The notes beneath the pieces are model-generated. The model made no database searches. It was not told the origin of the DNA and saw only the letters and a program-made list of their open reading frames with translations. From a phage: a stretch of DNA of 64,000 bases. The stretch lies in NCBI GenBank assembly GCA_026683435.1, contig GCA_026683435.1_4866.1; one strand, given 5' to 3'. Below are positions 14,499 to 17,341 of this stretch, piece by piece; positions within the stretch are counted from its first letter, which is position 1, and each line of letters begins with the position of its first letter. The position numbers and the translations under genes are program-made.

Positions 14499-15019
14499 AT
14501 CAGTTTAAAGGTATCACCTTCTAAGCCAGTCGGATGGATAATCATCGCTTCGGTATAGATAGGCTCTTCTTCTGCAATGCGGTGTTCAGCTGCTAAGCCT
14601 GAAAGGTGCATGTAGAGGTCTTCATCCATATCCCCGTTAAAAGATGAGGTCAGGATGAAAGGTGTGGATTCTGCGATTTGCAAAAGCGTTTCTTTGCTAA
14701 TCTGCATCTCCATTGTCCGACGTCGTTCCATCCAACTGCCTTGTTCGTGGATATACGGGTCGGTATTAATGCGAACGACAGGTTCCGTAGACACACCCAG
14801 ACCACGCGACATCATCTGGATGGCCAGAAGCGTCCACCATTCTTGTTCAGCTATCGGGAAACCGATAGCTTTCATCGTCCCGTCCGGTTGTGGAACGTGC
14901 AATTGCCCACGATGCTCGTCTGGAAACTCGATGATCTTCTGTCCATTGACAGGAACAAACGGCGGTTCGTCCGTAGCAACCACCACTTTAGGTTTGAATG
15001 GAACGACGTTGTCAACCAT
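14483..15019 (-). CDS. hypothetical protein
   Basis: 178-aa ORF, RBS aggagcg. Confidence 0.65.
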   Translation of the reverse strand: MVDNVVPFKPKVVVATDEPPFVPVNGQKIIEFPDEHRGQLHVPQPDGTMKAIGFPIAEQEWWTLLAIQMMSRGLGVSTEPVVRINTDPYIHEQGSWMERRRTMEMQISKETLLQIAESTPFILTSSFNGDMDEDLYMHLSGLAAEHRIAEEEPIYTEAMIIHPTGLEGDTFKLIWVEL

Positions 15020-15031
15020 AAACGCTCCTAA

Positions 15032-16069
15032 TTAGATAGCGACAGGCGCAGATATTTTTTCATGAGACTGATACCCAACGATCTCAAAATCTTCGAACTT
15101 ATAATCGAAGATAGAATCCGGTTTACGCTTGATGACCAGTTTCGGTAAAGGTAAAGGTTCGCGCGTCAGCTGCAATTTAGCCTGTTCCAGATGGTTGGAG
15201 TACAGATGTACGTCACCACCACTCCAAACGAAATCGCCTGGAACCATGTTAACTTGCTGAGCTACCATGTGTACGAGTAATGCGTAAGACGCGATGTTGA
15301 ACGGTGTTCCCAGGAAGAAGTCTTGGGAACGTGCATACAGCTGACATGAAAGAATGCGGCGAGGTATTTCAAGTGCGTCCATCTCAACGTGGAACACTGC
15401 GTCGTCTGCAACAGCTTCATTACTAAAGCGGGAATCGTTAAATTGATCTGGAAGGTTCTTTTCAAACCAATCAAGACGCTCGTCGATAGACAGCTCACGA
15501 GTGTAGAACTGAAAGAACGCATGACACGGAGCTAACGCCATTTGATCCAACTCACCCACATTCCATGCGCTGACAATAATACGGCGACTGTCAGGATCGT
15601 TACGCAGTTGGTCAATCACCTTAGAGATTTGGTCGTGTAGTTTCAGAAGTACACGCGCATCGAACATTTGTGAACCGTCGTCCGCGTCGCCATAATCCAC
15701 GTATCCTGCATCTTGCAGTTTCTCGAGTAAAGCTGCATTTTTCTTAGGCACCAGTTTCACATCTTTCCAACGTCTCCACTGTTCCCCATACAGGGGGCCA
15801 AGGTTCCCATTTTCATCTTGCCACTCCCGCCAAATGGTAACGCCGTTATCTTCCAGATATTTGGTGTTGGTATCGCCACTAAGGAACCACAGCAGTTCGT
15901 GAATAATAGAACGCAGGTGGAGTTTTTTAGTCGTGACTAGCGGGAAACCTTTGCGCAAATCAAAACGCATTTGGCGACCAAAGACGGAGAGCGTCCCTGT
16001 TCCAGTACGGTCGCCTTTAACATGCCCTTCATCCAGAATATTCTGCATCGTTTCAAGGTATTGCTTCAT
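15032..16069 (-). CDS. thyA: thymidylate synthase (ThyA family) with two insertions
   Basis: Motifs [25 protein letters not shown], catalytic [10 protein letters not shown], dUMP-specific [17 protein letters not shown]-terminus [20 protein letters not shown]…APVAI closely like E. coli ThyA; 345 aa versus about 264. Confidence 0.9.
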
Positions 16070-16929
16070 TAGATACTATCCCTCTTTAAGCTTTCAAATA
16101 AGTAAAGTAGATCATCATTCATCACCACATTCACACCGCCATCTGTGTAGGCTGCGGTTATTTCAGGTACACGTTCGAACAGGATACGATTCCAGCGCAC
16201 TGAGTCACGAACATATTTGTCCAGCAGTTCGTTTAACGTAGTTGCGAGTGCAGCATTGATTGTCGGCAACTCGTCGCGTTTAAACGGCCGGTGGCAATAG
16301 GGCGCAAGGTGCGTAGCGACACAACTGTCCAGGACAGTCTGGAACATCAGACAGATGGCTGGCCCAGACATCTGTCTAGAACCAGGCAATTTATCGCCAG
16401 TAAAATCATCAGACGCGGGAACAAACAACCCGATGCCGTTCATTTCACCTTTCGTGTTGATTAGCACACGATGTCCGTTGTATATTACACGGCCGAATTC
16501 CAGGCCGCAGATACGCGCCAACATTCGGTATTGTCGCGCCAAACTATGCAGCTCGGTAACGTAGCTGTGGGGCTCGTGCTCATCTTGCAATATGAGTCCA
16601 ACCACTTCGGTGGCAACAACAAAAAGGTTATGAAGACGGAACTCTTTGGTGTTTCCCGTGGTGCGGTCTTTTATAGCTGCATCCAGTGGAATAACGAAAT
16701 CTCCCACGTTCGTGTGCTTGCCGAAGTGCAACAGACCAACGAACGCCCAAAGAGAGCGACCCATGGCCGCCGCCACTTTCAAGTTGTCCATCTTCTGCAC
16801 ACCTTCAGCGACGTCGCCTAATGTGCGATAGAACTTGGCAAGCTGCTGCTCGCGTGTCCCGTATTGGTAAATCTTCGCTTGCCGGTACCAATCATCAACC
16901 GCCTGAGTCTGCTGAATAATACTAAGCAT
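16069..16929 (-). CDS. hypothetical protein
   Basis: ORF track 16069..16995; start moved to ATG 16929 (MLSIIQQ) preceded by AGGAGG. Confidence 0.7.
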
Positions 16930-17341
16930 ACTCTTCCTCCTGATACGCGTAGCAGATTGCAAAGTTAAGCTGGCCGGTTGCGCGAGAAACGACAACGGCG
17001 ATAGTCTGGTCTTCTACACCCGACATCGGTGTGCCCTGGTTAACCATTTGACCTGCGGCTTTACTTACCGGACCCAGCAAACGCCAGCTGTACAGACGGC
17101 TACGTAACGCGGCGTTTTGTAAGAAAGCGGAGCCGCAATCATAGTCGACGTTAAACGCTGCAAACATTGGACCACAGTCCGCCATTGTGCCGTTTAACGG
17201 TAACTCGCTCGTCACCACGATTTTCACCGGCTTGTCTTTGAGACGTTGCGCTAACGCTTCCCAGTTAGCGTTATTAGTGCCAGCGACGATGGTGTTGTTC
17301 AGAAGTAAGCCAACGCCTTTTTCAAACGCGATATTGTTCAT
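16922..17341 (-). CDS. hypothetical protein
   Basis: 139-aa ORF, RBS aaggag. Confidence 0.65.
   Translation of the reverse strand: MNNIAFEKGVGLLLNNTIVAGTNNANWEALAQRLKDKPVKIVVTSELPLNGTMADCGPMFAAFNVDYDCGSAFLQNAALRSRLYSWRLLGPVSKAAGQMVNQGTPMSGVEDQTIAVVVSRATGQLNFAICYAYQEEEYA

Follow-up and report, generated by a model that had tools for sequence, protein, structure and literature searches.

We analyzed a 64,000-nucleotide stretch of phage DNA (contig GCA_026683435.1_4866.1 of GenBank assembly GCA_026683435.1), hereafter the window. Comparison with GenBank phages (tblastn) places it in an SPN3US-like Salmonella jumbo phage of the genus Seoulvirus. A single open reading frame (ORF) of 345 codons on its reverse strand, running from an ATG start to a TAA stop in the ORF listing, encodes a thymidylate synthase (TS; gene thyA). 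We find that all residues by which this enzyme exceeds Escherichia coli ThyA lie in two discrete inserts. By tblastn, the protein is 99.1% identical to its SPLA5c homologue and 95.9% identical to that of SPN3US, which is annotated as thymidylate synthase; the TSs of ten SPFM phages are 97% identical to it. The gene has been annotated as a TS since 2011.

A ThyA core with two inserts

A phmmer search against all PDB sequences aligns the protein with E. coli ThyA (264 amino acids, aa) in three collinear stretches. Residues 1-102 match E. coli residues (Ec) 1-102 (E = 8e-49), residues 146-191 match Ec110-155 (E = 8e-20), and residues 240-345 match Ec159-264 (E = 5e-49). Across this core, 193 of 254 residues (76.0%) are identical to E. 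coli ThyA, for which the translation from an E. coli chromosome was used. Insert 1 consists of 43 aa in place of a 7-residue loop (Ec103-109), a net gain of 36, and insert 2 of 48 aa in place of a 3-residue turn (Ec156-158), a net gain of 45. Together these gains amount to 81 residues, which is the whole difference between 345 and 264 aa; thus, every extra residue falls within the two inserts and none elsewhere. A MAFFT alignment with 16 homologues has gaps at the identical two sites, and in an AlphaFold model both sites join conserved secondary-structure elements.

An earlier note on this DNA, made from the sequence alone, had described an enzyme very close to E. coli ThyA with two extra segments in place of short loops, at 15637-15766 and 15352-15502. 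The measured boundaries (15635-15763 and 15353-15496) lie within a few bases of these. An even spread of the extra residues, which that note had named as the outcome that would count against it, is ruled out by the three-block alignment. The features of the locus are collected in Table 1.

Table 1. Coordinates of thyA, its core blocks and inserts, and the adjoining ORF in the window.
Feature	Position	Strand	Evidence or remarks
thyA coding sequence	15032..16069	-	PF00303 E = 4e-112; NF002499, TIGR03284; PHROG 160 thymidylate synthase E = 3e-117
Core block 1, aa 1-102 = Ec1-102	15764..16069	-	74.5% identity; R21, K48, E58, W80, W83, Y94
Insert 1, aa 103-145, replaces loop Ec103-109	15635..15763	-	Alignment gaps, AlphaFold, conserved G122, Y/F123, G127; homologous unit in Goslar, phiKZ-like phages, Cyrano
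Core block 2, aa 146-191 = Ec110-155	15497..15634	-	82.6% identity; R162/R163 (= R126/R127), C182 (= C146), H183 (= H147)
Catalytic Cys182 codon	15524-15526	-	Within core block 2
Insert 2, aa 192-239, replaces tight turn Ec156-158 of interface beta-hairpin	15353..15496	-	Alignment gaps, AlphaFold helices
Insert 2 conserved N-terminal edge ELSIDER, aa 192-198	15476..15496	-	Residue conservation among distant representatives
Insert 2 conserved C-terminal edge MDALEIPRR, aa 230-238	15356..15382	-	Residue conservation among distant representatives
Core loop VNMV, aa 273-276 = Ec192-195 CDLE	15242..15253	-	Co-varies with presence of insert 2
Core block 3, aa 240-345 = Ec159-264	15035..15352	-	74.5% identity; R247, S248, D250, N258, H288, Y290, C-terminal APVAI, A246 for Q165
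Uracil-specifying Asn258 codon	15296-15298	-	Within core block 3
Upstream 308-aa ORF (context only, separate from the enzyme)	16069..16995	-	Stop overlaps thyA ATG by one base (TAATG)

Enzyme identity

Profile searches identify the product as a TS. It scores 374 bits against PF00303 (cut-off 24.3), with no other Pfam domain found in the protein, and passes the cut-offs of the NCBIfam TS equivalogs NF002499 (434.5 bits; cut-off 405), NF002497 (407.2; 327), and TIGR03284 (355.1; 108). Its PHROG matches are solely to thymidylate synthase families.

We compared the protein with what we take to be the catalytic and ligand-contact residues of E. coli TS. R21, K48, E58, I79, W80, W83, Y94, R126, R127, L143, C146, H147, R166, S167, D169, L172, G173, F176, N177, H207, Y209, and the C-terminal V262-A263-I264 are identical. 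The sole differences at listed positions are alanine (A246) for Q165 and arginine (R81) for D81. All phosphate-binding arginines (E. coli R21, R126', R127', and R166) are kept as R21, R162, R163, and R247, the catalytic cysteine stands in its P-C-H motif (C182, H183), and the folate-covering C-terminal segment reads APVAI, as in E. coli. The earlier note had pointed to the catalytic-Cys motif and to PFNIASY with Asn258, and both are there. The motif LYQRS(C/A)D of E. coli and the SPFM/SPN3US-type relatives is LYARSQD in this protein, around aa 246-249 (window 15323-15334). Alanine at the Q165 position, with a glutamine three residues on, is a variant common to the Lh1B-type alleles; in the alignment, position 246 is glutamine in the SPFM/SPN3US-type relatives.

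The predicted structure has the TS fold. Foldseek matches it to E. coli TS (1TYS) with E = 5.6e-46 and a TM-score of 0.96 when normalized to the target and 0.73 when normalized to the query. Thus, the core is fully matched, while the inserts have no counterpart in the PDB chains matched. In fold, C-terminus, and all catalytic and ligand residues except Q165 and D81, the phage enzyme is like E. coli ThyA (2TSC, 1TYS). As far as sequence and predicted fold tell, the gene product is a conventional ThyA-type TS, and the inserts very probably leave its chemistry unchanged.

Structure and placement of the inserts

The AlphaFold model, a check that the earlier note had named, depicts a monomer and was built with 115 diverse sequences in the alignment. 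Its mean predicted local distance difference test (pLDDT) score is 96.4 and its predicted TM-score (pTM) 0.93; with only 20 close homologues, the pLDDT was 58. Both inserts fold as defined units on the TS core, and mean pLDDT over 10-residue blocks is 89-97 in insert 1 and 87-98 in insert 2. Insert 1 is modeled as a strand (101-108), a helix (112-120), and two further strands (124-130 and 137-145) paired in a hairpin; the conserved helix that starts at DQI adjoins it downstream. Insert 2 is modeled as helices 195-205, 207-212, 217-221, and 223-232, placed between two hairpin strands, one with the catalytic Cys and the other with Arg247. Its 13 acidic and 5 basic residues give it an acidic character, with a net charge of about -8. 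Either insert alone gave nothing significant against PDB sequences or PHROGs, and PDB sequence and Foldseek searches returned no solved structure that contains one of them. The predicted 201phi2-1 TS in BFVD superposes on more of the model (91%) than E. coli TS does (73%).

ThyA-type TSs are obligate homodimers with shared active sites. The published list of 33 dimer-interface residues of E. coli TS includes W101, T103, and P104, as well as Y153, V154, A155, and D156 (Greene et al. 1993, quoted in PMC4304848). W101, T103, and P104 mark the beginning of the loop that insert 1 replaces, and Y153-D156 the strand end and turn that insert 2 replaces. By our own numbering conversion, we take Y189 of the phage enzyme to be Y153 of E. 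coli and Y202 of human TS. Human Y202 lies in the perimeter of the intermonomer interface, where it stacks on F59' and is near K47', T55', and D254' of the partner subunit (PMC9831607). The coincidence of both insertion points with listed interface residues suggests that both modules arise from the dimer-interface rim. Each insertion point probably lies about ten strand residues from the active-site end of the hairpin.

One core loop varies with insert 2. We compared the core columns of 106 sequences with insert 2 and 60 without it, uncorrected for kinship. E. coli L194 is methionine in 70 of the 106 carriers and in 5 of the 60 insert-free sequences, and CDLE (Ec192-195) becomes V/T, N/G, M, V/A in carriers; these are the strongest core differences beyond the hairpin turn. 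The phage enzyme reads VNMV here, against CDLE in E. coli ThyA, although it is E. coli-like elsewhere. This loop precedes the strand that ends in H207/Y209, which would put it at the hairpin-tip end of the sheet. The loop position and the co-variation, with the same caveat of kinship, suggest that insert 2 packs on the VNMV loop of the same subunit.

The inserts do not look like inteins or introns. They are 43 and 48 aa long, start with D and E, and end as ...KLH/D and ...RRI/L, unlike an intein, which would have a Hint domain, Cys or Ser at its N-terminus, and His-Asn at its C-terminus ahead of Cys, Ser, or Thr. Across positions 14800-17100, no Rfam match was found at E <= 1, that is, no group I intron or other RNA element. 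Composition shows no break, with a GC content of 46.5-47.3% in the inserts and 46-48% in the core, and conservation of insert residues is seen in the protein sequence.

Comparison with other thymidylate synthases

A large surface insertion is likewise tolerated by the bona fide TSs of Lactobacillus casei and Enterococcus faecalis, which have a 50-residue small-domain insertion. The L. casei-type insertion of ~50 residues lies near Ec88-90, earlier in the chain, and the alignment places no extra residues of the phage enzyme there. Against E. faecalis TS, the comparison spans 394 alignment columns for a 345-residue model, so the inserts do not superpose. Human TS has 8 extra residues in the insert-1 loop, compared with 36 in the phage enzyme, and none at the hairpin turn.

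T4 Td is likewise a phage TS with lineage-specific insertions, which lie near residue 85 and near the C-terminus, neither of them an insert site of the window TS. These T4 insertions were reportedly proposed by Finer-Moore et al. in 1994 to contact other enzymes. The T4 td gene also has a group I intron, whereas nothing intron-like was found in the thyA region of the window. The turn of the interface hairpin is equally long in E. coli, human, and T4 TS, which makes the insertion at this turn the unusual element. In the literature on SPN3US TS, jumbo-phage TS, and TS insertions, we found no description of the inserts.

Distribution among phages

A search of 5.8 billion proteins returned homologues of 339-353 aa on contigs of ~220-245 kb; they are 65-97% identical to the window TS, and every one has both inserts. 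Homologues labeled Shigella or Salmonella lie on 225-kb scaffolds in which most predicted proteins have no Pfam match. Because these scaffolds also encode a 2388-aa transglycosylase-domain protein and have an SPN3US-like gene order, we regard them as phage contigs.

Insertions at the hairpin turn extend well beyond close relatives. In a HMMER search over 1.84 billion cluster representatives, 150 TS sequences were listed, of which ~100 have a 20-90-residue insertion at the hairpin turn and many have one at the insert-1 loop. The edges of insert 2 follow the motif CH..FQFYT(R/E)(E/P)(L/M)(S/T)xxER ... (L/M)Dxx(G/N)(V/I)P(K/R)RxLSCQLYQRS.D, of which the part up to xxER recurs in ~100 representatives. 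Among distant representatives with a residue at the position, the N-terminal edge keeps R198 in 84%, E197 in 69%, and L/M193 in 71%; the C-terminal edge keeps L/M230 in 63%, D231 in 55%, V/I235 in 74%, P236 in 76%, and R238 in 48%. Insert 1 has the shared pattern W.D.r(v/i)v ... (K/R)G(Y/F)...G ... v..r.IDQI. As an informal signature of the lineage, we use a hairpin-turn insertion with the edges T(R/E)(E/P)(L/M)(S/T)xxER ... (V/I)PxRxLSC, an optional strand-helix-GY-hairpin unit ahead of DQI, and Met at Ec194; the window TS fits it with TRELSIDER ... EIPRRILSC, AGY at 121-123, and VNMV.

Among GenBank phages, carriers of a hairpin-turn insertion comprise the SPN3US-like phages, Erwinia jumbo phages, Cronobacter CR5, Goslar, Serratia PCH45, phiKZ-like Pseudomonas phages, Aeromonas D6, Lak megaphages, Cellulophaga phi17:2, Chryseobacterium MA9V-2, and ~110-kb phages such as Cyrano (108 kb). 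In the same table, the TSs of Bacillus, Arthrobacter, and other phages have ~41 codons over the hairpin segment and hence no insertion. Direct alignment finds both inserts, at the same sites and with the same edge motifs, in Goslar (gp141), Cyrano (CYRAN_72), and the phiKZ-like phage PhiPizzaParty, as in the TS of 201phi2-1 (B3FJL1). PCH45 and Cellulophaga phi17:2 share insert 2 with the window TS and lack insert 1. These other large-phage TSs differ in length (339-488 aa), and their cores are 39-71% identical to that of the window TS.

A third insertion site lies near E. coli residue 85, where the TSs of phiKZ-like phages, PCH45, Cellulophaga phage, and many representatives have 40-200 extra residues, unlike the window TS. 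The region near this residue also bears inserts in L. casei and eukaryotic TSs. One further sequence, P0154 (377 aa), contains nine short ThyA-like blocks in reverse order and may be an artifact of assembly or gene calling.

Cells were surveyed across 185,579 bacterial and archaeal species, each represented by a single genome. Among the best 80 of at least 600 confirmed matches, with Enterobacterales on top, the match spans 783-831 bases, which leaves no room for the inserts. We translated 26 of these 80; they are 263-277 aa long, 24 of them exactly 264 aa. Thus, no cellular insert carrier was found among the best 80 of at least 600 matches, which does not prove absence from cells.

Variability and exchange of the inserts

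Within the family, mean pairwise identity is 0.28 for insert 1 and 0.36 for insert 2, compared with 0.79-0.84 for the core blocks. This difference is sharp even between close relatives. The Lh1B-type alleles are 97-98% identical to the window TS in core block 1, 98-100% in insert 1, 100% in core block 2, and 92-98% in core block 3; their insert 2 is 31-33% identical. In other alleles, insert 1 and insert 2 change independently.

The same pattern is seen in the DNA. Window and Lh1B are 100% identical in 11 of 12 30-nt windows across gene nucleotides 151-510; identity is 86% at nucleotides 541-600, 26-46% at 601-717, and then 93-100% up to 987. Throughout insert 2, SPN3US and SPLA3 do not differ from the window, but they diverge in other segments. 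Among four close phages (window compared with L001, L006, and L007), stretches that are 100% identical are interspersed with others at 26-76%, and the pattern is specific to the partner compared. Several discrete cassette types occur within one phage genus. Thus, thyA is a recombinational mosaic in which insert 2 behaves like a cassette. In SPFM phages, a published scan picked out TS codons as being under positive selection (PMC6614189), and this mosaic structure may account for that flag.

We also considered inserts 1 and 2 as a single composite structure. This was rejected: the two are found separately in some enzymes and are exchanged independently.

Ancestry relative to host ThyA

The earlier note had called the enzyme host-like. 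Enterobacterales ThyAs are indeed its nearest cellular relatives. The core is 71-76% identical to the ThyAs of Pantoea, Serratia, Klebsiella, E. coli, Photorhabdus, and Aeromonas, to which it is about equidistant, and 69% identical to a betaproteobacterial ThyA. The named Enterobacterales and Aeromonas ThyAs are themselves 85-94% identical to E. coli ThyA. In a neighbor-joining tree of core columns, the SPN3US-like family and Goslar form their own clade beside gammaproteobacterial ThyA and outside the Enterobacterales. A clade of Enterobacterales and Aeromonas without phages was recovered in 70 of 100 bootstraps, and phage-clade monophyly in no more than 48. The branching order depends on sampling, since a tree with E. 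coli as the sole named bacterium put E. coli inside the phage family.

Recent capture from, or gene conversion with, host thyA was tried and rejected. A blastn search against 5,426 E. coli genomes gave three pieces of ~70% identity and no high-identity patch. The tree position and the ~70% DNA identity suggest an old phage lineage rather than a recent host gene that gained insertions; host-like therefore describes the resemblance of the protein and not its place in the tree. Our reading is that the enzyme probably represents an old, mainly phage-borne TS branch that evolves slowly in enterobacterial phages.

Neighboring genes and related insertions

The 308-aa ORF upstream of thyA has a weak match to a MazG-family PHROG (E = 8e-6) and no PDB sequence match; none of nine flanking ORFs matched a Pfam family. 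Window positions 16070-16863 have no DNA homology to SPN3US or SPLA3. Identity on either side is 93-97%, and homology breaks off precisely at the start codon of thyA. This slot holds a different, 289-aa gene in SPN3US and, in SPLA3, an HNH-like gene that extends over the start of thyA and is annotated "restriction endonuclease." The position immediately upstream of thyA is a hot spot of gene replacement. No neighbor gene is conserved across SPN3US, Goslar, PCH45, and phiKZ-like phages.

In Cyrano, the gene order is MazG-like pyrophosphatase, TS with both inserts (mislabeled ThyX), polynucleotide kinase, and dihydrofolate reductase (DHFR). In SPLA3, a gene annotated as MazG lies ~2.3 kb downstream of thyA. 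In SPN3US, thyA (L001 6001-7038) has GTG where the window has ATG, and the GenBank coding sequence begins 7 codons downstream, losing the conserved N-terminus MKQYLE.

Other phage and metagenomic TSs (P0122, P0130, P0132, P0139, P0163, P0173, P0218, P0238, and others) have a 170-280-aa in-frame insertion at the insert-1 loop. Three of these insertions were scanned, and all consist of an HNH endonuclease with a C-terminal tail like a helix-turn-helix (phrog_2081, E = 1e-43 to 1e-47). The scanned insertions gave no intein motifs and no significant Pfam match. Each looks like a homing endonuclease present as a domain insertion in an essential gene, neither intron nor intein.

Insert 1 as a decayed relic of such a homing endonuclease was considered and rejected for want of support. 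When 18 insert-1 units were compared with a profile of the HNH insertions, the hhalign probability was 1.3% and the wrong region was aligned. With a hidden Markov model of insert 1, only phiKZ-like enzymes that contain the unit score, and no HNH insertion rises above shuffled decoys. The inserts are short, so this does not disprove the relationship.

What the inserts may do

We consider it likely that the inserts are non-catalytic, structurally anchored surface modules of a genuine deoxythymidine monophosphate (dTMP) synthase, which act, if at all, on contacts within the dimer or with partner proteins. The enzyme would make dTMP and dihydrofolate from deoxyuridine monophosphate (dUMP) and methylene-tetrahydrofolate. 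From the rim of its dimer interface, two autonomously folded modules would sprout: insert 1 as a unit in the loop before the DQI helix, and insert 2 as a helical unit on the interface beta-hairpin, at its tip. A few kept residues (G122-Y123 and G127; ELSxxER and (L/M)Dxx(G/N)(V/I)PxR), together with the VNMV loop, may anchor the modules to the core. The exposed remainder would drift freely and be traded between related phages by recombination. We infer that the modules would act on quaternary structure or protein contacts and not on chemistry.

Several points weigh against this reading. Contacts of the inserts with the partner subunit or with each other are deduced from residue lists in the literature, since the model is of a monomer, and the co-variation of the VNMV loop with insert 2 is uncorrected for shared ancestry. 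The inserts also occur separately and swap independently, contrary to one composite structure. Finally, modules that vary so extremely could just as well have no function.

The earlier note had suggested that the inserts might alter chemistry, for example toward hydroxymethyl-dUMP (hmdUMP) synthesis. A hydroxymethylase of dUMP or deoxycytidine monophosphate (dCMP), or another pyrimidine-modifying enzyme, seems to us extremely unlikely. Hydroxymethylases of the TS family do occur in phages; T4 gp42 and SPO1 gp29 are phage-encoded and share the fold. In dCMP hydroxymethylases of the T4 gp42 type, Asp replaces the uracil-specifying Asn, whereas the window TS has Asn258. The dUMP hydroxymethylases of the SPO1 gp29 type make hmdUMP, usually beside functions that deplete deoxythymidine triphosphate (dTTP) and an hmdUMP kinase, and we know of no simple sequence diagnostic for them. 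That hmdUMP synthases retain the Asn at the uracil-specifying position (PMC8989533) leaves room for altered chemistry, as do A246 for Q165 and R81 for D81. However, unlike T4 gp42 and SPO1 gp29, the window TS scores as a TS equivalog, matches only TS PHROGs, and keeps both Asn258 and APVAI. Its core is 76% identical to ThyA, with the catalytic Cys, the four Arg, Glu58, Tyr94, and Trp80/83 also kept, and its close relatives have Gln at 246. Both insertion points would lie some ten beta-strand residues from active-site C182 and R247. Moreover, ThyA-type TSs yield dTMP and dihydrofolate, and DHFR is required only where dihydrofolate is made. Related phages encode this enzyme: it is found in all SPFM phages (PMC6614189) and two genes downstream of the insert-bearing TS in Cyrano. 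A tblastn search of the window for DHFR, with the FolA sequence of E. coli and the Frd sequence of T4, found nothing. Given the TS profiles, the kept residues, the predicted fold, and the DHFR of relatives, the hydroxymethylase idea is unsupported. In practice, this settles the annotation as a TS, probably a true dTMP synthase, and gives no evidence for modified thymine in these phages.

Three other explanations leave the chemistry as it is. The inserts might dock specific phage partners in a T4-like nucleotide-synthesis complex (DHFR, a MazG-like pyrophosphatase, a kinase, or a reductase), a possibility that we rate as somewhat unlikely and that, if true, would channel dTMP precursors in the infected cytoplasm. 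The earlier note had likewise suggested that the inserts could mediate phage-specific interactions. The phage association of the inserts and their surface position at the interface rim would suit such a role, as would the MazG-TS-Pnk-DHFR cluster of Cyrano, the translationally coupled upstream ORF with its weak MazG match, and the contacts reportedly proposed for T4 Td. It would also suit the cytoplasmic location, outside the phage nucleus, of a PhiPA3 TS fused to green fluorescent protein (bioRxiv 10.1101/2021.04.26.441357). On the other hand, docking is hard to fit with insert-2 cassettes that are 31% identical in near-identical phages, unless only the conserved edges bind; sibling phages have another gene in place of the upstream one, and a neighbor conserved across the phage groups compared is lacking. 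Functionless relics or passengers, whether in-frame mobile leftovers or neutral loop expansions shuffled by phage recombination, are in our view unlikely. The in-frame HNH endonucleases in the insert-1 loop of other phage TSs, the HNH-like gene directly upstream of SPLA3 thyA, and the hypervariable, mosaic nature of the inserts point in this direction, as does the weak effect of TS knock-down in phiKZ (PMC12571901). Yet no similarity of insert 1 to the HNH insertions was detected, the composition of the inserts does not differ from that of the remaining gene, and the inserts, their edge residues, and their confident folds are kept from phiKZ-like to SPN3US-like phages despite ~51% core identity. 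Selection might instead keep the inserts variable, with the rim recognized by a host defense or a competitor effector and diversified by cassette exchange. The sharp identity drop in the inserts of otherwise identical genes, the several cassette types in one genus, and the published positive-selection flag agree with this, but recombination alone can mimic positive selection, relaxed constraint gives the same pattern, and no TS-targeting defense system or inhibitor was found in the material examined; we hold it to be very unlikely. A broader version, in which the loops are landing pads for exchangeable cassettes, kept diverse because a defense, a rival phage, or a lineage-specific partner recognizes the rim, and in which the HNH-bearing versions of insert 1 are the actively mobile form, is speculative and quite unlikely.

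TS is among the most conserved and best-studied enzymes. This phage lineage shows that an obligate dimer tolerates elaboration at the tip of its interface hairpin and in a neighboring loop. If the loops were landing pads, a metabolic enzyme would be a site of molecular conflict. If the modules are neutral, they are a clean case of cassette-like recombination in an essential gene and a warning for selection scans. If the modules bind partners or tune dimer formation, they would offer a handle on how large phages supply nucleotides in the cytoplasm.

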